Below, one piece after another: positions 10,094 to 35,207 of a DNA stretch of 47,886 nt (position 1 is its first letter; every line of letters begins with the position of its first letter). A program made the position numbers and the translations under genes. This stretch comes from a virus. Under the pieces are notes generated by a model, which was given only the letters and a program-made list of their open reading frames with translations, was not told the DNA's origin and did no database searches. The stretch lies in the IMG/VR virus record IMGVR_UViG_3300045988_074299, positions 1 to 47,886 of that record. One strand, written 5' to 3'.

Positions 10094-11128
10094 TTAAGCA
10101 CCAGTAACATCAATAATACCAACCTGATCTGCTGTCTCGAATGAAGGCAAATAAATCATAGACACTTTAGTATCAACGTTAACCGGATCAGTTTTCTTTG
10201 ATGTAGTAACCGCAACGCCTGTATCTGTAATTGATACATTAGCAGCAGAACCGGCCATAAGATCTGATTGTTCTGGCGTTGTGCCGAACCATCCAGTTCC
10301 TAACTTGCCCTGCGGAAAGATAGCAAACGTGTCATCTGCAACATACTGGAACTCGTTTCCTTTCTCATCCTTCGCTTTCTTGTTGTATACTACAACATCC
10401 AGCTTTAACTCGTCCATAATGTAATCCAAAATCTTCGTATCAGATACTGGTGCTGTAGCATCACTTCCAAGAATTGCCTGACGAATCTCATTATTTTTTC
10501 TGATATAACCGAATGTCTTTCTTGAACATACAGCCCTTTCAGGTCGAACACCAGTCTCGTCTTCAATCAGATCCATAAGATCACGAATATCATCGATAAT
10601 TGTAGCCGTTGGATCAGACCATGCTTTTGTAGAATCAACCATGTGATTGCTAGGAATACCATAATCATAATCGTAATTCTGGCCATTTGCCTTAATGCTG
10701 ATCTTACCAGTTGTAAGAGCCATCATTCTCATACGCTCACGTTGTGCAGCAGCACCGTCCAAAAGATTGGTTGTATCATTAAATACCTGATTCATAATGG
10801 AATCAATATAAGCTTGATTTCCTGTCTCAAGTACCTTATTTAACTCCTGCCGAAGTTCCTCATCAATATACGTAGATTCTTTGAAAAATGGCATATCCAT
10901 GTTTAACTTATCGAATCCGATTCGATCTCTCTTCTTTGCAGCCACATCATATGCCGATGGTTTTAACACAACCGGTAACCCCTGAGACCCTTTGATCCAT
11001 TTAATGCTCAAACCTAACTTTTGCTGCGATGGAAATAACTCCTCACCAAGATAAGGTTTTCTGTTTTGAGCTTGCGACTCCCAATAAGCCGTAATTTGAT
11101 CTGACGTTACTAATTCAAAAATTGTCAT
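10094..11128 (-). CDS. Major capsid protein (capsid protein E-like family)
   Basis: 344 aa. N-terminus ITAYWESQAQNRKPYLGEELFPSQQKLGLSIKWIKGSQGLPVVLKPSAYDVAAKKRDRIGF matches the capsid-E family pattern. It follows the scaffold gene. Confidence 0.85.
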   Translation of the reverse strand: MTIFELVTSDQITAYWESQAQNRKPYLGEELFPSQQKLGLSIKWIKGSQGLPVVLKPSAYDVAAKKRDRIGFDKLNMDMPFFKESTYIDEELRQELNKVLETGNQAYIDSIMNQVFNDTTNLLDGAAAQRERMRMMALTTGKISIKANGQNYDYDYGIPSNHMVDSTKAWSDPTATIIDDIRDLMDLIEDETGVRPERAVCSRKTFGYIRKNNEIRQAILGSDATAPVSDTKILDYIMDELKLDVVVYNKKAKDEKGNEFQYVADDTFAIFPQGKLGTGWFGTTPEQSDLMAGSAANVSITDTGVAVTTSKKTDPVNVDTKVSMIYLPSFETADQVGIIDVTGA

Positions 11129-11567: not shown

Positions 11568-12308
11568 TTAACTTCTGAAATAGCTACTTTTCTTTGTAGC
11601 ACCATTTCCATTAACCTGTGCTTGACCAAGTCTTTTCCCGATTCCATCTTCATCCTTTTTAGATGATTTATGGCGAACACTTGTACCGGTGCCACCTTTT
11701 CCACCATCATCATCGTCGTCTGAACCATCGAAAAAACCCTTGTATCGTGGCTGAGTTTTCATCTCGCCAAGAACATCCTCTAATGATTTACCATCTTCAA
11801 CCTTCATCATTGCGATGGCAACAGCATCATCAACAGCATCCTTCTTTACACCTGCTTGAATAGCTGCTAACTTATTTTCTGCAGCTTCTGCTCTCTTCTC
11901 AGCATCTGACTTATCATCATTTGCCTGTTGAATCTGTGCCGCAGTTTTCTGTTCCGGAGTTAACTGTGATTCCTGATACTTTCTGAAAGCTTCCAACTGA
12001 GCTTTTGCTTCTTTCTCAGACTTAAAACCCATCTCCCGAAAAGCTGCTGCACGTCCTTGCTTTTTCTCTTTAGCCGCAGTTGCTGTCATGTCAGCTTGTG
12101 TAAACTTCTTTTCATTGTCTTTGCTGTCTTTGTCACCTTCGTCTGAATCATCGTCATGGTCGTCACCATCTGAATCATCATTGCCATCATTCTGATCATC
12201 ACCGTCATCATCACGATCCTGATCTCCACTTGATGCAAAAAACTGTAAGTTAGTTGCCATTCGTGGTAACGTGTTTTCTAACATGTTTTCAATTGTTCTG
12301 TTTTTCAT
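11568..12308 (-). CDS. Capsid scaffolding protein
   Basis: 246 aa. Asp-rich N-terminal low-complexity tract followed by coiled-coil KFTQADMTATAAKEKKQGRAAAFREMGF... Located upstream of the capsid gene. Confidence 0.7.
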   Translation of the reverse strand: MKNRTIENMLENTLPRMATNLQFFASSGDQDRDDDGDDQNDGNDDSDGDDHDDDSDEGDKDSKDNEKKFTQADMTATAAKEKKQGRAAAFREMGFKSEKEAKAQLEAFRKYQESQLTPEQKTAAQIQQANDDKSDAEKRAEAAENKLAAIQAGVKKDAVDDAVAIAMMKVEDGKSLEDVLGEMKTQPRYKGFFDGSDDDDDGGKGGTGTSVRHKSSKKDEDGIGKRLGQAQVNGNGATKKSSYFRS

Positions 12309-12365: not shown

Positions 12366-12719
12366 TTAAACAAGAATATTACGCGGTATAAGATTCTTGC
12401 ATTTATCCCTAAGCTTCATTTCGTAGCTTATAAGGTCTTCTTTTAACTCGATTGCTTGTTTGATTCTTTCCTCTGTTGGAAAAATACCTCTTTGCTTTTT
12501 CTTTTGTATACTTTTGTTAATCTTAACAAGCTTCTTCCTTTTCTTCTCTACAGTGTAGTCAACTACTTCTATGAGATATGGCTTTCCACAATTTCTACAA
12601 TTAAACCAAGCAACCTCAATTACTTTGCCATCAATATTTATAACTTTACGCTTAGGTTCAATGACCGTTATTCTACAATGACAATTATCGCAAACAATAA
12701 TATTTTTATTATCATTCAT
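12366..12719 (-). CDS. Zinc-ribbon protein, paralog B
   Basis: CDNCHC...(28 aa)...CRNCG followed by a basic coiled coil. The ATG at 12719 is preceded by GAGGAGG; the track start at 12737 is less likely. Same architecture as the upstream gene. Confidence 0.6.
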   Translation of the reverse strand: MNDNKNIIVCDNCHCRITVIEPKRKVINIDGKVIEVAWFNCRNCGKPYLIEVVDYTVEKKRKKLVKINKSIQKKKQRGIFPTEERIKQAIELKEDLISYEMKLRDKCKNLIPRNILV

Positions 12720-13104
12720 TTGTATCATCCTCCTCAAATACTTCAGCAGGAATCTTGTCCTTGTATTGATTCAAAAGCATTTGCTGATATTCTGTGTTTT
12801 CTAACTTTAATTTTTCAAGTTTGTCTTTTCTCTGCTTATAAATAACCGGACATAACATATGATCTCCAGTTACTTCCATTTTTCTAACGGAATCATAAGC
12901 TGCAAAATATGAATTTCTAACTCGTTTTGCTCGATAATTCAGCATCCCTACTAATTGAATTGCTCCACATTCAGGACATTTGTAATAGATTATCGCAAAG
13001 GTGTCATTACCAATCTTTACCTTTTCTTTCTGTTTGATTTCCACAGTATCAAATAAAAACTCGCTCTTACACTCTTCACATATTACTTCAACTTTTTTAT
13101 TCAT
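12712..13104 (-). CDS. Zinc-ribbon protein, paralog A
   Basis: CEECKS...(31 aa)...CPECG followed by a basic/coiled-coil tail. RBS AAGGAGAAAAAAG upstream. Confidence 0.6.
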   Translation of the reverse strand: MNKKVEVICEECKSEFLFDTVEIKQKEKVKIGNDTFAIIYYKCPECGAIQLVGMLNYRAKRVRNSYFAAYDSVRKMEVTGDHMLCPVIYKQRKDKLEKLKLENTEYQQMLLNQYKDKIPAEVFEEDDTNE

Positions 13105-13113
13105 CTTTTTTCT

Positions 13114-13150
13114 CCTTAAAACAAGAATAAGCCGGTATTTCTACCAGCTT
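13114..13150 (-). terminator. Candidate intrinsic terminator after gene 13183..13506
   Basis: Minus-strand RNA AAGCUGG-uagaaaua-CCGGCUU (7 bp including one G-U) followed by AUUCUUGUUUUAAGG. On the plus strand the same stem carries a C-A mismatch. Confidence 0.4.
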
Positions 13151-13182: not shown

Positions 13183-13506
13183 TTAATAGCACATTGCTTT
13201 TAATTCTTTAAATCTTGCATTTGCTTCATTACAATTATTAAACCAGTCATTTGATACACAAGCATCTACTACATCTTCTATTTTTACTGTATTTGGGTCT
13301 TTTGTCCAAACCTGAATTCCATATTCATTTTCCTTACCAATGCATGCATCATATTTTCTTTGAATACATCTAATTGTATATCCTGCTACTTCATAATCTT
13401 TAATTGTTTCGCTTGAATGTTCTGCATACATCTTTTGCTTGTATTGTTCTGCGGCATCCCATCTCTTATATTGTTCTTTACTATAAACTGGTTTGTTGTA
13501 TCTCAT
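13183..13506 (-). CDS. Hypothetical protein in a single-gene cassette with its own promoter and terminator
   Basis: 107 aa ORF with RBS GGAGGTAG. A sigma-A-type promoter lies 50 nt upstream and a hairpin lies downstream. It sits directly after the MuF-toxin gene. Confidence 0.65.
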   Translation of the reverse strand: MRYNKPVYSKEQYKRWDAAEQYKQKMYAEHSSETIKDYEVAGYTIRCIQRKYDACIGKENEYGIQVWTKDPNTVKIEDVVDACVSNDWFNNCNEANARFKELKAMCY

Positions 13507-13557: not shown

Positions 13558-13586
13558 ATTATATACCATATTTACGAATTTGTAAA
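13558..13586 (-). promoter_or_regulatory. Sigma-A/sigma-70-type promoter
   Basis: Minus strand TTTACA-17 nt-TATAAT in a 230-bp AT-rich intergenic region. Confidence 0.55.
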
Positions 13587-13738
13587 CACTTTTTTATGAT
13601 TTTTTTTGAATTATTTTTTCAATTGCTTAAAGAACAAAACAAACTGCTTTATTAAATTTTTATCAGCATTTTTGCTGTATTGCCATTTGCCGTTCTTTAT
13701 ATAAAAATTATCATCAAACATCCAATCTACATTTCCAC

Positions 13739-15298
13739 TTACCATTTAACATTCTCCTTTACATACTTAACAACATCTCTTGATATTTTGTTTGCATTTT
13801 CTCCATTCTTGTAAACATCTGCAAAAGCTTCTGCAAAAAATTCTTCTTTCGATGTCGTAGCATATCTGCTTATGTATTCACCAGCTATTTGATAGTCAGC
13901 CAATCCGATATCCATAGCTGTCTTCTGATATTTCGACATAAAATTATTAACTGCAAAATCAACGGCTTTGTATTGTTCATCTCCAATGTCAACACCAACT
14001 GCATGAGACAGCTCATGCGAAAAAATAGAATCTACGTCTGCATTGTTATGATAAGCTCTTATTCTTCCGCCAACTGCATTTAAGAAATCAGAATCACTTT
14101 TAAAAATATTAGGATTTACATACAACGTTGCTTTATCGTCCTTCTTGACATATGCATATGCTCCTGACATTAAATCACTAAAATCTGATTCATTCATAAC
14201 AACTTTATTTATTGGCGAACTTATTCCAAATGCCGAATTATATTTATCTTTCACTGATGTTAGTTTTGTTTTTACATAATCATTTACATTTACAAACTCT
14301 AAATTGCTCACACCTGCTGCATTTACTGTCTTTTTTAACATCTCAGGAGTATAGCCGAGTGAATAGGCAAAATCATCAATTAAACCATTCATCTTTTCAT
14401 TTCCAGTGCCATTATACCAATTGGCTAGATCATTAACAACGTCATTTGTGCTTTTTGTTTGAACTATTGTTAGGAAGCATTGACCATTTGGATGATCTAG
14501 TGGCACTTCTCCTTTTGGATATATCCCTGGACCTAATCCATATGAATCATTTTCCTCCCTTTCAATACATAATGGACAAACTCTATTGTTATGACCGGTA
14601 TTCCATTGATAAGCTTCTACCCATGGATCTTTTGCAGTTGATCTCTCAAAAGCTTCTTGGTATGCATGACTCATCATTGTTCTTGCTAATCTACTAGCAT
14701 TGTAATCAATTACTTTGTTGCTACCAGGATAATCTCTTGCCCATTTATACGTTTTTCTTGCTTCCGGATTTACGTAGGCTTCTAAATCTTTAGCGACTTC
14801 ATACACACCTTTATTTGCCGCAATACCTCTTGCTACAATATTTTGACAATCCTGCTTTATCTTTTTATTTGTACCCCAAATGGCACTACTTAACGACCAA
14901 TCGCTTTGGTATAATTGACCGGAAATTATTGTCTCAACTACATCAGTAGGAATATTGGAATATTTTCCTGTTATACCAACAAATCCTAGTTCTTTAGCTC
15001 TTCTTATTTCTTCTTCCAATACAGCTTCTGCTGTATGAGTCATTCCTGACTTTATATTTGATTCAATCCTACGATTTACCTTGCCAAGTTCATCAGCAAG
15101 TTGTTTTTGATATTCATTCAAATACTGCGTTCTAAGTATTGAGCTTATATTTGTCTTGCCTGAAAGATTTTCTATTCTTCTTGAATATTGATCAGCAATT
15201 TCCTGATACATACTTTTAATTTGTTGCAGTTGCTGATTAGTAATTGCCTTACGTGTTTGCTCAGCTTTTGCAAATCTTAAATTGTACACAATCAGCAA
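13739..15298 (-). CDS. Minor head protein (MuF/SPP1 gp7-like) fused to a C-terminal anthrax-lethal-factor-like zinc metalloprotease domain
   Basis: The N-terminal two thirds end in the MuF-type motif NRVCPLCIEREEND...LDHPNGQCF. The C-terminus has FSHELSHAVG (HExxH) and RYATTSKEEFFAEAFADVY, the same pattern as lethal factor (HEFGHAV ... EAEFFAEAF). The true start may be the GTG at 15289, 9 nt after GGAGG. Confidence 0.8.
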   Translation of the reverse strand: MLIVYNLRFAKAEQTRKAITNQQLQQIKSMYQEIADQYSRRIENLSGKTNISSILRTQYLNEYQKQLADELGKVNRRIESNIKSGMTHTAEAVLEEEIRRAKELGFVGITGKYSNIPTDVVETIISGQLYQSDWSLSSAIWGTNKKIKQDCQNIVARGIAANKGVYEVAKDLEAYVNPEARKTYKWARDYPGSNKVIDYNASRLARTMMSHAYQEAFERSTAKDPWVEAYQWNTGHNNRVCPLCIEREENDSYGLGPGIYPKGEVPLDHPNGQCFLTIVQTKSTNDVVNDLANWYNGTGNEKMNGLIDDFAYSLGYTPEMLKKTVNAAGVSNLEFVNVNDYVKTKLTSVKDKYNSAFGISSPINKVVMNESDFSDLMSGAYAYVKKDDKATLYVNPNIFKSDSDFLNAVGGRIRAYHNNADVDSIFSHELSHAVGVDIGDEQYKAVDFAVNNFMSKYQKTAMDIGLADYQIAGEYISRYATTSKEEFFAEAFADVYKNGENANKISRDVVKYVKENVKW

Positions 15299-15383: not shown

Positions 15384-16967
15384 TTATTCGTCATCCCGTG
15401 ATCCCTCAACAACATCCGGTTCATCCAATTTACTATCATCATCTTCACCATCTAATGGCTGGTCATCTCTTTCCATTGGAGGAATATTACCATATGAATT
15501 ACCAGATAGCATTTCCTGTTCTAAAGCAATTTGCTGAAGTTCAGACATCACTTCTTTATCAGTAAGTTTTCTCCATTTCTTCATGTAAGAAGACCGGCTC
15601 ATTGTTTGTGCTGTTACTTCTGCAAGATCAATATTCTTTTCATCCTGTTCATCCTCTGGTAAAGCATAATTGTTCATAACCTGAATATCTGCCTCAACAA
15701 TTGGAAGCTCCTCATTTGTATAATACGGAACAACATTTGGATATAATGAAGCGCCATCCAATATACACTTTGCAATGAATTCTGCTGCTGCTCCCCATGT
15801 TTGCATCTTCTCATCACATCTTACAATCAATGGCCAGTAAAGAGCCTTCAATGTTTTTCCTGATGTGATCACTCCTTGCAACTTGTCAGACTCAATGTTT
15901 GGAATTGATCCCAAACTATGCATCTCGTTGTCTACACGATCCAATGTAGCAGACAAAGCTGCTGAGTAGCTCATGTTCGATTCCATTTGGCCGACAGAAG
16001 CATTCAACACTTCAACACCATTGTTATCTGACTGAATGTCCCAAAATGCTCCTGGACCGATCGAAAGATTTTCTGTTGATTCTGGTGATGCATTGATAGT
16101 ATAGCGAACAGGATTCATACTCTTTCTTTCTGCATCAAAATCACTATTTACTAACTTGCTATAATACTTTTCATATTTTGCATAGTCCTCAATCTCTGAT
16201 TCTCCTCTAATGTCATTTGTAAGACCATCATTAAGAATCACTACGGCTGGAATATATTCAAACAACGTAGGTCTTGCCGGAACTAATTCTTCAAGCTGGA
16301 CACCTAAGCCATTATACATAACCTCATGTACCCAACAATGTCCATCATCTGCCATCCAATATGTTTTCTTACGTATCTTCTTTTCTACATTATCTGATGC
16401 CTCAACCTCAACAAAGAAAGCAACAATCTTAGTAAGCATATCGGCTCCGGCCATCTCGTAGTAGAACTCTAATGGGTTAAGAAAATCAACTGCAATACCA
16501 GAGTCCTCATTGAAGTTGAGAATACAAGCAACTCTTTTACCAATAAAACAATCCTTTGCCGCTTTCAATACATTCTTGTCAAAGAAGTTTTTCTTCAGGA
16601 CTTTCTGCAGGAAATTATTCAAGATTGTGTTATTTGCCTTCTGCTCATCTGTTTCATTCTGATCCTGATTAACGTAGAAATCCATCGGCGTACTGAACAT
16701 AAACCTTGCTTCTTTGTTAATCAATCCTGCTGCTTTTTTGAATCTCAATTGACTTGGAATATAATCACCATTTGTTCCGTCAGTCGTAAAGTCCATACCT
16801 TGTTTGTAGATCTGGTAAAACTTCTTTATCTTTCCGAGCTCATGGAAGAAATCTTCCCTAAGAGTGCCACTAATGTCTTCATCCAACACTGCATAAGGAA
16901 TATCTCTATACGATACGATGTCTCCATCTTCAATTGATGTTGTAATGTTTACATTAGCATCACTCAT
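15384..16967 (-). CDS. Portal protein
   Basis: 527 aa with an acidic C-terminus. It sits in the terL...portal-MuF arrangement typical of SPP1-like head modules. Confidence 0.8.
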   Translation of the reverse strand: MSDANVNITTSIEDGDIVSYRDIPYAVLDEDISGTLREDFFHELGKIKKFYQIYKQGMDFTTDGTNGDYIPSQLRFKKAAGLINKEARFMFSTPMDFYVNQDQNETDEQKANNTILNNFLQKVLKKNFFDKNVLKAAKDCFIGKRVACILNFNEDSGIAVDFLNPLEFYYEMAGADMLTKIVAFFVEVEASDNVEKKIRKKTYWMADDGHCWVHEVMYNGLGVQLEELVPARPTLFEYIPAVVILNDGLTNDIRGESEIEDYAKYEKYYSKLVNSDFDAERKSMNPVRYTINASPESTENLSIGPGAFWDIQSDNNGVEVLNASVGQMESNMSYSAALSATLDRVDNEMHSLGSIPNIESDKLQGVITSGKTLKALYWPLIVRCDEKMQTWGAAAEFIAKCILDGASLYPNVVPYYTNEELPIVEADIQVMNNYALPEDEQDEKNIDLAEVTAQTMSRSSYMKKWRKLTDKEVMSELQQIALEQEMLSGNSYGNIPPMERDDQPLDGEDDDSKLDEPDVVEGSRDDE

Positions 16968-16981
16968 CGTTTAATTCCTCC

Positions 16982-17740
16982 TTACTTCAAATATTTCTTA
17001 CTTACAAATCCAGTGTACTTACCGTACTGAACGAATAACCAAACATCTGAACCAACATTTGTATAATAGCCATGGCATGCAACACGTGTTCCTTTCGGAA
17101 TAACGGTAACAATAGGTTTCTTAGCTCCTGCACCTGTTCTAAGATTCAAATTGCTTATTGTTGCATACAAGCCATTGTACTTGGCATCCCTGTGCCTAGC
17201 CGGCTCTGTTGGATTCTTAGAAGCTGTCACAGTATTATTTGGCTTTGCTTTGACATTCTTTACTCCTTTCTTATCATCCCATGTTTCCTTGAACTTATCA
17301 GGTGTGCCGTACTTTTTCTTTAATTGTGTAGCTGTACTACCCCAATCAGGTAACTGAAAATGTGGGAGATCTTTGATTGACTTCCAATCTCCTCCCCATT
17401 CAAGACCAAGCTTCTCACCAATCGCTCCTACCTTATTGAATAACTTTGTTGCATTATTGAAAACATCATCTGATTTCTTTCCATCTTTATCGACATCCAT
17501 ATCCAAGAAAAAGTCAAAAGCAACTCTCCATTGATGCATCGATCTGTAGTCCGTTCCTTTTGCTTTTGTAACAATCGGACCAGGAACACCATTTCTACCC
17601 TTTGCATATAAAGCATTCTGCTCTGCTACTGTTCTTACACACTCACCAATCTTAATCTTAATTCCTTGCTTCTTACATTCTTGTTGAAGCTTCACTACTT
17701 TCTTTTGTAAAGTAGGATGTAATTGTGATACATTACGCAT
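16982..17740 (-). CDS. Endolysin: M15-family zinc peptidase domain plus a C-terminal SH3-like cell-wall-binding domain
   Basis: Motifs SMHQWRVAFDF (H-x6-D) and GGDWKSIKDLPHFQL. C-terminal LNLRTGAGAKKPIVTVIPKGTRVACHGYYTNVGSDVWLFVQYGKYTGFVSKKYL. It overlaps the holin gene by 8 nt. Confidence 0.85.
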   Translation of the reverse strand: MRNVSQLHPTLQKKVVKLQQECKKQGIKIKIGECVRTVAEQNALYAKGRNGVPGPIVTKAKGTDYRSMHQWRVAFDFFLDMDVDKDGKKSDDVFNNATKLFNKVGAIGEKLGLEWGGDWKSIKDLPHFQLPDWGSTATQLKKKYGTPDKFKETWDDKKGVKNVKAKPNNTVTASKNPTEPARHRDAKYNGLYATISNLNLRTGAGAKKPIVTVIPKGTRVACHGYYTNVGSDVWLFVQYGKYTGFVSKKYLK

Positions 17741-18068: not shown

Positions 18069-19424
18069 CTATGCTGCTCCTTTTCTACTATTATTCTTTC
18101 TCTCTTTTACATCAGCAACAGTAACATCATCTAATGCATACCATATTGCTGAAAAAGTATGAGGATCAATATTGAATTCATCGTAAATCATATTGCCATT
18201 GCTATCCTCAGCATACGCAAGATCTTTAAGCTCCCTTATTGTATTCTTACATTTTGGACTACATATGATTTTCTTAAATCGTTTTACTTTCTTTACTTGT
18301 TCAAGCCTTGTTATTTTATGACACTTCGTAAACCCAAAACCTTCATCGTGAAAATATTTAATTGATCCCGGCTGAGCACAATCGGCTTTTACTCTCCAAT
18401 TCTTACTATCAGGATTCCACTCCTCAAGTTTTTCTGCTGTTTGCTTATCTGTTAAGTGGTTTCTATACCACTCATCGTAAATATACAATATTCCTTGCTT
18501 AGTATCAACAGCAATTCTTACCAAAGCATTATATGAAGTCTCAAAGCCAAAGTCAAAACCATTCCTTTTAATTGGTGCGGAAAGAACCGCCCTCTTAAAC
18601 TCTTTTGGATCATCTGCAATAACAAACTGGGGAAGGACTCTCCGGCCATTGATACCGAACTTGCCTTCCCTCGCTACTCTATATAAATCTGGATCATATG
18701 TTTTGAGTTCTTCCAACTTGGCTATATAATCCAATGTTAAGAATGAATTATCTTCTGGAACGCTGTGGTGATAATATACACCATTTGGATTGTCCCTGAT
18801 TATCCTCCGTTTGTAGAATTCTTCCTCATTCTGGACCACTACCAGCTTTTCTTCACCATTGGCATCTACTTCCTTGCGTTCAAAGAAATGCGTATATATC
18901 CAATTTTGTTTATCAACCGGATTGGTTGTTAATAAGTAGTAGATCTTTAAGAATGGATTTCTAAGTCTTAGCTTCAACTCCTTATAAGCACTATATTTAA
19001 CTTCAGATGCTTCCTCCATCCAAACAATGGACACATTGTTGATGGACTTTACCTTGGTAGGCTTGTCCATACCTTTGAATACAATCCTTGAACCATTTGG
19101 GAACATGAACTGTAATGGTGACCTAGAAGCAATCACATATTGTTCTCTACTTTGCTTGCTTTTGTCTTCTGTTACAATTCCCATGCCATCTAAGATCTCA
19201 TAGATTAAGTCATAACAGGACTCTTTGATCTGCTCGTATGTATCTCTTACAACCAACGCTTTTCGCTTCTCACTTAGTAGCTTAAGAATTAGCTTTGTTG
19301 CTGTCTCATAAGATTTACTACTACCATAAGATCCTACCAGCAAATACTCTTGATGATTCCAGTCAGTCACATAATCCATAAAGTGCTCATTCACTGTTAG
19401 TTTAATTTCTTGTTCTATATCCAA
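18069..19424 (-). CDS. terL: Terminase large subunit
   Basis: 451 aa. Walker A-like LLVGSYGSSKSYETATK, Walker B-like VSIVWMEEASE, and a C-terminal nuclease-type region. PBSX/Terminase_3-like. Confidence 0.9.
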   Translation of the reverse strand: MDIEQEIKLTVNEHFMDYVTDWNHQEYLLVGSYGSSKSYETATKLILKLLSEKRKALVVRDTYEQIKESCYDLIYEILDGMGIVTEDKSKQSREQYVIASRSPLQFMFPNGSRIVFKGMDKPTKVKSINNVSIVWMEEASEVKYSAYKELKLRLRNPFLKIYYLLTTNPVDKQNWIYTHFFERKEVDANGEEKLVVVQNEEEFYKRRIIRDNPNGVYYHHSVPEDNSFLTLDYIAKLEELKTYDPDLYRVAREGKFGINGRRVLPQFVIADDPKEFKRAVLSAPIKRNGFDFGFETSYNALVRIAVDTKQGILYIYDEWYRNHLTDKQTAEKLEEWNPDSKNWRVKADCAQPGSIKYFHDEGFGFTKCHKITRLEQVKKVKRFKKIICSPKCKNTIRELKDLAYAEDSNGNMIYDEFNIDPHTFSAIWYALDDVTVADVKERKNNSRKGAA

Positions 19425-33955: not shown

Positions 33956-34546
33956 TTATTTACTAAGCAAACTGTATACTTCTGCACGTAACGGTGCACT
34001 CTCTTTGAATAAACCTCTCAATACTGCACTGTTTGTTACAGTTCCTGGCTTTTTGATTCCTCTTGCAGTCATACAAGAATGTTCTCCTTCGATCACAACC
34101 ATCACATCATGGGTCTTTAATACCATCTGCAATATATCTGCAATGTCGGTTGCAATGCGCTCCTGAAGTTGCAGGCGCTTACATACCATATCAACAATCC
34201 TTGCAATCTTGCTCAGCCCGATGACTCTGCCATCCGGAATATATGCAACAGAAACCTTCATGTTATACATCAATGCTAAATGGTGCTCACAATAGCTAAA
34301 TGCATCAATATTCTTCATTAGCACGAGATCTTTTGCCTCTGGCTCTTCAAAGCATTTGTTAAACTTATTAGCGATCTCTTCGTTAGTATATCTCATACCT
34401 TCAAATACTTCGTTATACATCTTAGCAACACGCTTTGGCGTGTCCTTTAACCCTTCTCTTTCGGGATCATCGCCTAATGCTTCTAAGATTGATCTAACTG
34501 CCTGCTCAATCTTATTCATTGATTCTTTGCTTAATTCTCTTTCCAT
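33956..34546 (-). CDS. folE: GTP cyclohydrolase I
   Basis: Collinear with bacterial FolE: [40 protein letters not shown] and [16 protein letters not shown]. The ATG at 34546 is the preferred start. Confidence 0.92.
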
Positions 34547-34547
34547 C

Positions 34548-35207
34548 CTACACACCTCTTTCGTTTGGATTCCAAATGATCTTGTGTAACTGCACTTGCA
34601 CTCTACAATTCCATAGTTTCTTCTCCATCATGTAGTCAACAATTGCTGATGGCTCAATCTCGCCAAATACTGGACTGAAAAAGATCTGCGGATCGGATCG
34701 CAAACTATTGATAACCGAATATGCAGCATCGAGATCACCTTTACATCCGACTACAAACTTTAATACATCACAATTCTTTAATGTATTAAGATTCTCGATA
34801 CTCATTGCACTTTCCATTCTACTTGATGGACATTTGTAGTCCATTGTAAAAAACAGCAACCTTCTTTCGCCAGCCTGATACCTTGCAGGAACTGGCCTTG
34901 TACCATTAGTTTCAATATTTACTTCAATGCCATGCTTAATTAAACCATCAATTAACTTCTCAATATCCTGATGAATCAATGGCTCACCACCTGTGATTGT
35001 AACACGTGGAATGCCCGAACCAATAACACAATCAATAACTTCACTTGGATCCATCTCAACTGCTTTGTCCTGCTCTGTAATGTGGCTATAAGGCGTATCA
35101 CAGTAACTGCAATTTAAGTTGCAACCGTACAAACGAACAAATACAACCGGAAGTCCTGCTCTAATTCCTTCACCATCAATACTTTTGAAGATCTCAACTA
35201 CTTTCAT
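34548..35207 (-). CDS. queE: 7-carboxy-7-deazaguanine synthase (radical SAM)
   Basis: [35 protein letters not shown] (QueE-type CxxxCxxC cluster) and ITGGEPL. Confidence 0.9.

Follow-up and report, generated by a model that had tools for sequence, protein, structure and literature searches.

A lethal-factor-like zinc peptidase fused to a MuF-type minor head protein, with a small candidate partner gene, in a Clostridia-type phage

The viral record IMGVR_UViG_3300045988_074299 (IMG/VR), whose whole stretch of 47,886 nucleotides was analysed and is called the window here, contains a gene that joins a MuF/SPP1 gp7-like head-morphogenesis part to a C-terminal zincin metallopeptidase domain. An open reading frame (ORF) encoding 44 residues overlaps its end. 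Our preferred reading, to which we assign a probability of roughly 0.55, is that the product is a minor head protein of the MuF/SPP1 gp7 type with an accessory, catalytically competent zinc endopeptidase from a phage clade, which would be injected to act in the infected cell and be silenced by the 44-residue partner. The features discussed are collected in Table 1, and residue numbers refer throughout to the 519-residue version of the protein.

By its active-site residues the C-terminal domain is predicted to be a catalytically complete gluzincin, whose nearest characterised relative appears to be anthrax lethal factor (LF). A preliminary description of this DNA had pointed to an HExxH motif and a downstream glutamate motif, paired as in LF and the ATLF family, and the alignments bear this out. 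The interval 13739..14290, to which that description assigned the fusion, is the 3' third of the 519-codon minus-strand ORF and holds the codons of both HELSH and SRYATTSKEEFFAE. We aligned the domain over 55 sequences with 18–63% identity. The alignment columns H99, E100, H103, S148, E157 and E161 are invariant, and Y150 and A160 are nearly so. A profile of this alignment searched against the PDB retrieved LF as the best match (E 4.9e-4 to 2e-3), with the Pro-Pro endopeptidase among the weak matches. It places H428/E429/H432, Y479, E486 and E490 on H686/E687/H690, Y728, E735 and E739 of LF, within an aligned core of about 70 residues. The roles of the LF residues H686, E687, H690, Y728 and E735 are established and comprise the zinc ligands, the catalytic tyrosine and the glutamate that serves as third zinc ligand. 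The family profile was needed for this comparison, as the whole protein had no match in the PDB by phmmer.

A search with the M34/ATLF models had been proposed as a check, and one part of that expectation stood. ATLF is the best Pfam family for residues 337–519 alone (183 residues, E 2.2e-4) and LF the best profile match in the PDB, but the score of 21.4 bits lies below the Pfam gathering threshold of 27.4. The whole protein scores 17.3 bits against the same 27.4, and the threshold for M34/ATLF is not reached. The domain is best described as LF-like and not demonstrably inside M34, and scores below the family thresholds point to a distinct phage clade of gluzincins. With LF and PPEP-1/Zmp1 (MEROPS M34, Pfam ATLF PF07737) it shares the HExxH helix followed, about 45–55 residues on, by S/T-x-Y-x6-E-F-F-A-E-A-F. 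Unlike LF, the protein has no PA-binding or substrate-docking domain, and it is predicted to be an intracellular phage cargo, not a secreted exotoxin.

The AlphaFold (AF2) model of the zincin, calculated with the 55-sequence alignment, has a pLDDT of 95.7. A three-stranded sheet is followed by HELSH on helix 93–109, and the glutamates of EFFAE are located on helix 155–172 (domain numbering). A single-sequence AlphaFold run of the whole 519 residues reached a pLDDT of 36.8, and a usable model was obtained only from the domain with its alignment. In a Foldseek search of the PDB, LF was the top match (probability 0.96, E 9.5e-3, TM 0.36, rmsd 11 Å), with M1 aminopeptidases and myroilysin close behind. 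The best matches in BFVD were phage proteins named 'Lethal factor' (TM 0.71, E 5e-7), and further matches at TM 0.6–0.7 were named 'Minor capsid protein', 'Metalloprotease' and 'MuF-like minor capsid protein'. The placement nearest to LF thus draws on Pfam ATLF, the family profile against the PDB, and Foldseek against both the PDB and BFVD.

The N-terminal part is a MuF-type minor head protein, as supported by its PHROG profile and its post-portal position. Residues 11–304 match phrog_1657, 'head morphogenesis', with E 8e-55, and residues about 10–305 match phrog_21401, 'pilot protein for DNA ejection', with E 1.5e-47. By tblastn, 43 phages in GenBank, the majority of Clostridium and Clostridioides, encode head-morphogenesis proteins that cover N-terminal residues about 10–300 only. 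The joining of such a protein to a C-terminal zincin, as claimed in the preliminary description, is therefore confirmed by these profile matches, the gene position and the profile matches of the C-terminal domain. We regard the N-terminal part as a divergent MuF because both Pfam Phage_Mu_F (PF04233; E 0.03, 15.5 bits against a cut-off of 29.6) and TIGR01641 (SPP1 gp7; E 4e-5, 23.9 bits against 39.65) match it only below their cut-offs. PF04233 is present in its canonical form in the relatives L020, L024, L026 and L015. Jamet et al. (PMC5576092) had to define additional MuF families from the post-portal gene position, with which the divergent MuF of the window agrees.

Relatives of the zincin occur in several architectures. 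An exhaustive HMMER search of 1.84 billion representatives gave 99 zincin relatives at E≤1e-3, just three of them close. When these were compared with Pfam, 11 contained Phage_Mu_F, 6 contained Phage_min_cap2 and one was a portal fusion; ATLF was matched by nine at E≤1e-3, the best at 5e-10. NUDIX, ADP-ribosyltransferase, eCIS_core and more toxin-type domains were also found among them, as were large surface proteins. The portal fusion P0005 (1063 residues) combines Phage_portal_3, the zincin, a NUDIX hydrolase and DUF4258 in one protein and thus represents another virion anchor, and P0004 and P0007 are giant multi-copy proteins. A word-indexed protein search with the zincin domain returned one fragment. 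The full-length protein had no relative in 185,579 species genomes, and a narrower domain alignment led to seven distant prophage or metagenome-assembled genome (MAG) loci. Stand-alone paralogues can occur in tandem: four lie in a Flexilinea MAG contig (L021 5521..10537), and a phage contig from a metagenome has two, placed upstream of terS (L003 4188..5681). Most of these tandem copies have a mini-ORF of their own behind them.

The gene conserved next to the zincin is the 44-residue ORF, which had been missed earlier. Homologues occupy the same overlapping position in all close MuF-zincin relatives recovered (L001, L002, L005, L008–L011). A profile search with the ORF found 28 protein clusters, which have no Pfam domain and are almost all unnamed; in the contexts of these homologues, portal, MuF-zincin and small ORF follow one another. 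No match was found by tblastn against GenBank phages. Substitutions among the homologues are distributed over the three codon positions as 73/51/146 and 30/20/63 in two groups, an excess at the third position. In the loci fetched via the zincin itself only, a small ORF of 44–66 residues follows 19 of the 21 zincin genes, with its start between -9 and +16 nt relative to the stop codon. At the seven distant prophage/MAG loci, found via the zincin alone, an ORF of 47–66 residues stands after nearly every zincin gene, whether Phage_Mu_F-fused or stand-alone. Many of these MAG ORFs share a motif like W..W...(D/N)(A/T)P(D/E)x(I/V)(K/R)Kx(Y/F). With a profile made from the MAG prophage ORFs only, the twelve best-ranked of 460 ORFs are all post-zincin ORFs (E 0.006–0.14), and the L010/L002 and phiCT19406A types are matched at E 0.006–0.07. 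The window-type profile matches the phiCT19406A type with E 0.17. A single family comprising all of the small ORFs appears partly supported by these comparisons, and the 44-residue protein is a candidate cognate partner of the zincin, possibly an inhibitor or immunity protein.

The preliminary description had instead named a 107-residue gene farther downstream as the possible companion, which did not hold. The region's best sigma-70-like match, TTTACA-17-TATAAT (11/12, 13586..13558), lies upstream of this gene and a terminator-like hairpin (13150..13129) downstream. No homologue of it was found in any related MuF-zincin locus. Its 30 homologue clusters are on phage contigs of about 47–50 kb and, in the contexts examined, in the early region near the primase. 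A role as immunity partner of the zincin is ruled out by its own promoter- and terminator-like signals, its absence from related loci and its primase-side location elsewhere. It looks like a mobile, self-contained and probably separately transcribed moron-like gene.

The zincin and the small ORF, whose translation is coupled to that of the MuF-zincin gene, are swapped between unrelated MuF/head modules as one cassette. In the related loci L015 and L007 the MuF parts are 15–30% identical and the zincin parts about 82%. The sole stretch of DNA shared by these two loci, 840 bp at 85% identity, reaches from the linker across the zincin to the first part of the small ORF, and the flanks, including the scaffold and capsid genes, show no similarity. 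The zincin has also been lost cleanly. The 47.8-kb contig L012 is 96% identical to L010 at the DNA level on both sides of an in-frame 492-bp deletion that removes exactly the zincin. The deletion site is located at L012 3954..3958 against L010 3964..4455, with the aligned blocks overlapping by 5 bp at the junction, and it begins at the position equivalent to the linker. The MuF protein of L012 ends in ...KNFG|DVYANGDK...; the deletion took every catalytic residue with it and left the small ORF in place. The cultured Clostridium phage CS266P3, whose major capsid protein, portal and MuF are 64%, 45% and 38% identical to those of the window, has a MuF protein of 322 residues without the zincin, and without the small ORF. 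CS266P3, L012 and the cassette exchange together indicate that the zincin is an accessory, modular cargo and not a head-maturation protease.

Within the preferred reading, and by analogy with SPP1 gp7 and MuF toxins, the MuF part would anchor the protease in the capsid at the portal. The protein would exit the virion along with the DNA at infection. The protease could then cleave at least one protein of the cell that has just been infected, serving host takeover or anti-defence, or acting as a toxin in the manner of MuF polymorphic toxins. In the producing cell, the 44-residue partner, made in step with the protease, would silence the zincin, and it would be lost as the protein crosses the tail unfolded. 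A broader version of this proposal is tentative and on balance doubtful. The zincin and its 44–66-residue partner may form a new, putative protease–inhibitor cassette that circulates in phages of Clostridia and other Bacillota and is joined to any capsid-internal anchor. It would then provide this apparently virulent phage with an injected first-strike protease aimed at a defence or housekeeping protein of the host, not with an inter-bacterial toxin, and the inhibitor would be stripped off mechanically at ejection.

Several observations weigh against the injected-protease reading. The similarity to LF is sub-threshold (21.4 against 27.4 bits for ATLF; Foldseek TM 0.36, E 9.5e-3), so that substrate specificity cannot be transferred from LF. 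Zincin relatives are mostly stand-alone proteins of 180–260 residues without a recognisable capsid anchor, such as those of L003; with a majority of this kind, the zincin does not always require MuF. The MAG-only profile does not reach the 44-residue ORF of the window directly, and the link between the two runs only via the L002/L010 subtype, with E about 1e-26 to 1e-30. In L012 the small ORF persists in the absence of the zincin, which fits an orphan immunity gene and a partner-independent role as well. Finally, the replication module of the phage is of the virulent type, with a single transcription direction and no detected lysogeny genes. The window encodes a DNA polymerase, primase, SSB, UvsX-like recombinase, RNase H, resolvase, deoxynucleoside kinase and a 7-deazaguanine module. 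Neither an integrase nor a repressor was found among the about 45 window ORFs scanned, in a window that may not be a complete genome. MuF toxins are reported as specific to temperate phages (PMC5576092; PMC12226406), and the classical rationale of competition between lysogens therefore fits this phage poorly. Should the genome prove complete, the phage may be an exception to the temperate-only rule. Distant relatives of the zincin do occur in bacterial MAG contigs.

The main rival to the injected protease is a self-processing or release protease, in which the zincin would cut its own polypeptide off the MuF anchor or trim internal head proteins or, before or after ejection, cargo, and not host proteins. 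We consider this unlikely. It has a precedent in the polyvalent proteins, such as N4 virion RNA polymerase and P1 DdrB, in which zincin metallopeptidases are found in proteins packaged in the capsid and co-delivered with the DNA, and in whose domain network MuF is a hub; cis-processing was proposed for the commonest domain of these proteins, with the LF structure named as the HHpred link (Iyer et al. 2017, PMC5512222). Multi-domain relatives of the zincin, namely P0005 with its portal, zincin, NUDIX and DUF4258 parts and the giant multi-copy proteins P0004 and P0007, would suit the same role. In contrast, the protein of the window has two domains and nothing C-terminal of the zincin to release, and stand-alone versions of about 200 residues lack any further part to process in cis. 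A partner ORF dedicated to the protease and transferred together with it is unexpected for a purely cis-acting enzyme, and no small partner gene is described for the polyvalent proteins. Pfam has a dedicated model for the metallopeptidase of polyvalent proteins; it is not listed for the query at E≤1, nor, for the 99 relatives, is it among the 25 families matched most often out of 28.

It is also conceivable, and to our minds quite improbable, that the protease acts late in the producing cell without being injected, modifying host or phage proteins in assembly or lysis with the small ORF as cofactor or chaperone. Many stand-alone relatives are situated at the start of late operons, as are the tandem copies of L003, and tight translational coupling would suit an obligate cofactor. 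On the other hand, L012 retains the small ORF after losing the protease, and the zincin has been fused repeatedly and independently to three virion-internal anchors (Phage_Mu_F, Phage_min_cap2 and portal), which argues for delivery via the capsid.

A prohead protease that matures the capsid by cutting the scaffold or the capsid protein is very unlikely. Such a role would fit the label 'capsid maturation protease and MuF-like fusion' given to some actinobacteriophage genes and the lack of a ClpP- or HK97-type protease gene between portal and major capsid protein. In BFVD, a match from Mycobacterium phage Indlulamithi (TM 0.58) likewise bears the name 'Capsid maturation protease'. A protease is not needed by scaffolded heads of the SPP1 type, and the same cassette is found in head modules with unrelated capsid proteins. 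The head of CS266P3, built from a 64%-identical capsid protein, uses a zincin-less MuF, and L012 lost exactly the zincin from an otherwise 96%-identical contig; the zincin is not an obligatory partner of its capsid type, and we reject this explanation. That the domain is a decayed, non-catalytic remnant serving as a structural extension only is scarcely credible: the sub-threshold Pfam score and the absence of close relatives from curated phage genomes would agree with decay, but the catalytic positions are invariant or nearly so in 55 sequences of 18–63% identity and the confidence of the predicted fold is very high (pLDDT 95.7).

Table 1 Features of the window discussed in the text
Feature	Coordinates	Strand	Remarks
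MuF-zincin fusion gene	13739..15298	-	519 codons from TTG 15298; follows SPP1-type portal gene
MuF / SPP1 gp7-like head-morphogenesis (minor capsid) part	14369..15298	-	residues about 1-310; PHROGs, tblastn
Linker between MuF part and zincin	14297..14368	-	residues 311-334
C-terminal gluzincin (lethal-factor-like) metallopeptidase domain (predicted)	13742..14296	-	residues 335-519 (185 residues)
HELSH (H428, E429, H432)	14003..14017	-	two zinc ligands and catalytic base, active-site helix; aligned with LF HEFGH
SRYATTSKEEFFAE	13829..13870	-	Y479 corresponds to LF Tyr728; E486 to LF Glu735, third zinc ligand; E490 to LF Glu739
Conserved 44-residue ORF (MVSGNVDWMFDDNFYIKNGKWQYSKNADKNLIKQFVLFFKQLKK)	13611..13745	-	ATG overlaps MuF stop (ATGGTAA); GGAG 8 nt upstream
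107-residue gene	13183..13506	-	no Pfam or PHROG match
Portal protein gene	15384..16967	-	Pfam SPP1_portal E 9e-19, phrog_64
Terminase large subunit	18069..19424	-	
Scaffold	11568..12308	-	
132-residue head protein	between scaffold and major capsid protein	-	
Major capsid protein	10094..11128	-	

The MuF-zincin gene lies immediately downstream of the portal gene, with 85 nt between the portal gene end and the ORF, an order also found in L001, L010 and L012–L019. An in-frame GTG at 15289, 9 nt past a GGAGG, would give a protein of 516 residues, and the listed TTG abuts this GGAGG; the GTG is the likelier true start. All sizeable genes of the window are on the minus strand. The local order is terminase large subunit, endolysin, portal, MuF-zincin, 44-residue ORF, 107-residue gene, two zinc-ribbon genes, scaffold, 132-residue head protein and major capsid protein. 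Megablast with 13 kb of the sequence gave no match among GenBank phages, and PADLOC and NCBIfam scans gave nothing informative. A terminator-like hairpin at 14001..14018 (minus strand) inside the MuF-zincin gene, the palindrome GCATGAG...CTCATGC, is a product of the codons surrounding HELSH and most likely a mere coincidence of the coding sequence.

Further features of the surroundings were observed. The slot between MuF and scaffold contains an ADP-ribosylglycohydrolase in one relative (L001 7770..8597) and a Tad2-like protein in another (L019 4745..5107). Tad2 is an anti-Thoeris family, and the slot resembles a hotspot of counter-defence or moron genes. The zinc-ribbon paralogues of the window (12366..13104, minus strand) are adjacent and overlapping, encode 123 and 130 residues and match phrog_1315, with CpXC-like proteins in relatives. 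Related phages, among them CS266P3, which lacks the zincin, keep the pair in the interval from MuF to scaffold. The endolysin gene (16982..17740, minus strand; phrog_2649, with a C-terminal SH3-like part) is located between the terminase large subunit and the portal, which is unusual for a lysis gene; a lysin directly upstream of the portal is also found in L012 and CS266P3. The 7-deazaguanine (queuosine-precursor) module at 33956..35207 (minus strand) consists of a GTP cyclohydrolase (33956..34555) and a QueE-like radical SAM protein (34548..35207) and suggests that the phage DNA is modified.

We know of no member of the metallopeptidase class of MuF toxins that has been tested experimentally. 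MuF polymorphic toxins as such are a published class (Zhang et al. 2012, PMC3482391; Jamet et al. 2017, PMC5576092). The preliminary description was right to invoke this class of phage toxin fusions, into which the architecture of the window's protein fits (PMC5576092). A metallopeptidase domain is present in 20% of the 191 catalogued MuF toxins (PMC5576092). An LF-like metallopeptidase toxin is listed with PVC and type II secretion system (T2SS) delivery and with Imm-SuFu immunity, not with MuF (Zhang et al., PMC3482391). For Apk2 with IapK/Aph1, the combination of a MuF toxin with a directly downstream immunity gene was tested experimentally (PMC12226406).

The protein of the window shares with MuF polymorphic toxins the post-portal MuF N-terminus, the variable enzymatic C-terminal domain and a small ORF directly downstream, with domain and ORF exchanged as a cassette. 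The enzymatic domain also occurs in other delivery contexts, and the downstream small ORF co-varies and co-transfers with it. The differences are that the partner here has just 44 residues and belongs to no described immunity family, and that the class is described as temperate-only whereas no lysogeny genes were detected in the phage of the window. With SPP1, in which gp7 is a portal-bound minor head protein, the phage shares the order portal, gp7/MuF, scaffold and capsid in a scaffolded head module without a protease; gp7 itself has no enzymatic C-terminal domain. MuF-metallopeptidase fusions, catalogued in 2017, and LF-like zincins as toxin modules were thus already known. What is new is an LF-like phage clade in an apparently non-temperate Clostridia-type phage, a tiny conserved partner family, and natural evidence of both cassette exchange and clean loss.

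Proteins injected by phages are the earliest actors of infection, and few have been characterised. The zincin offers a tractable case, as a small protease domain with a confident model and a candidate inhibitor of 44 residues. A near-identical phage from which the zincin has been deleted and a cultured zincin-less relative provide natural material for comparison. Knowing the substrate of the protease could uncover a defence or takeover target of the host in gut Clostridia, and the 44-residue partner could be the first of a new family of small proteins that inhibit zincins.

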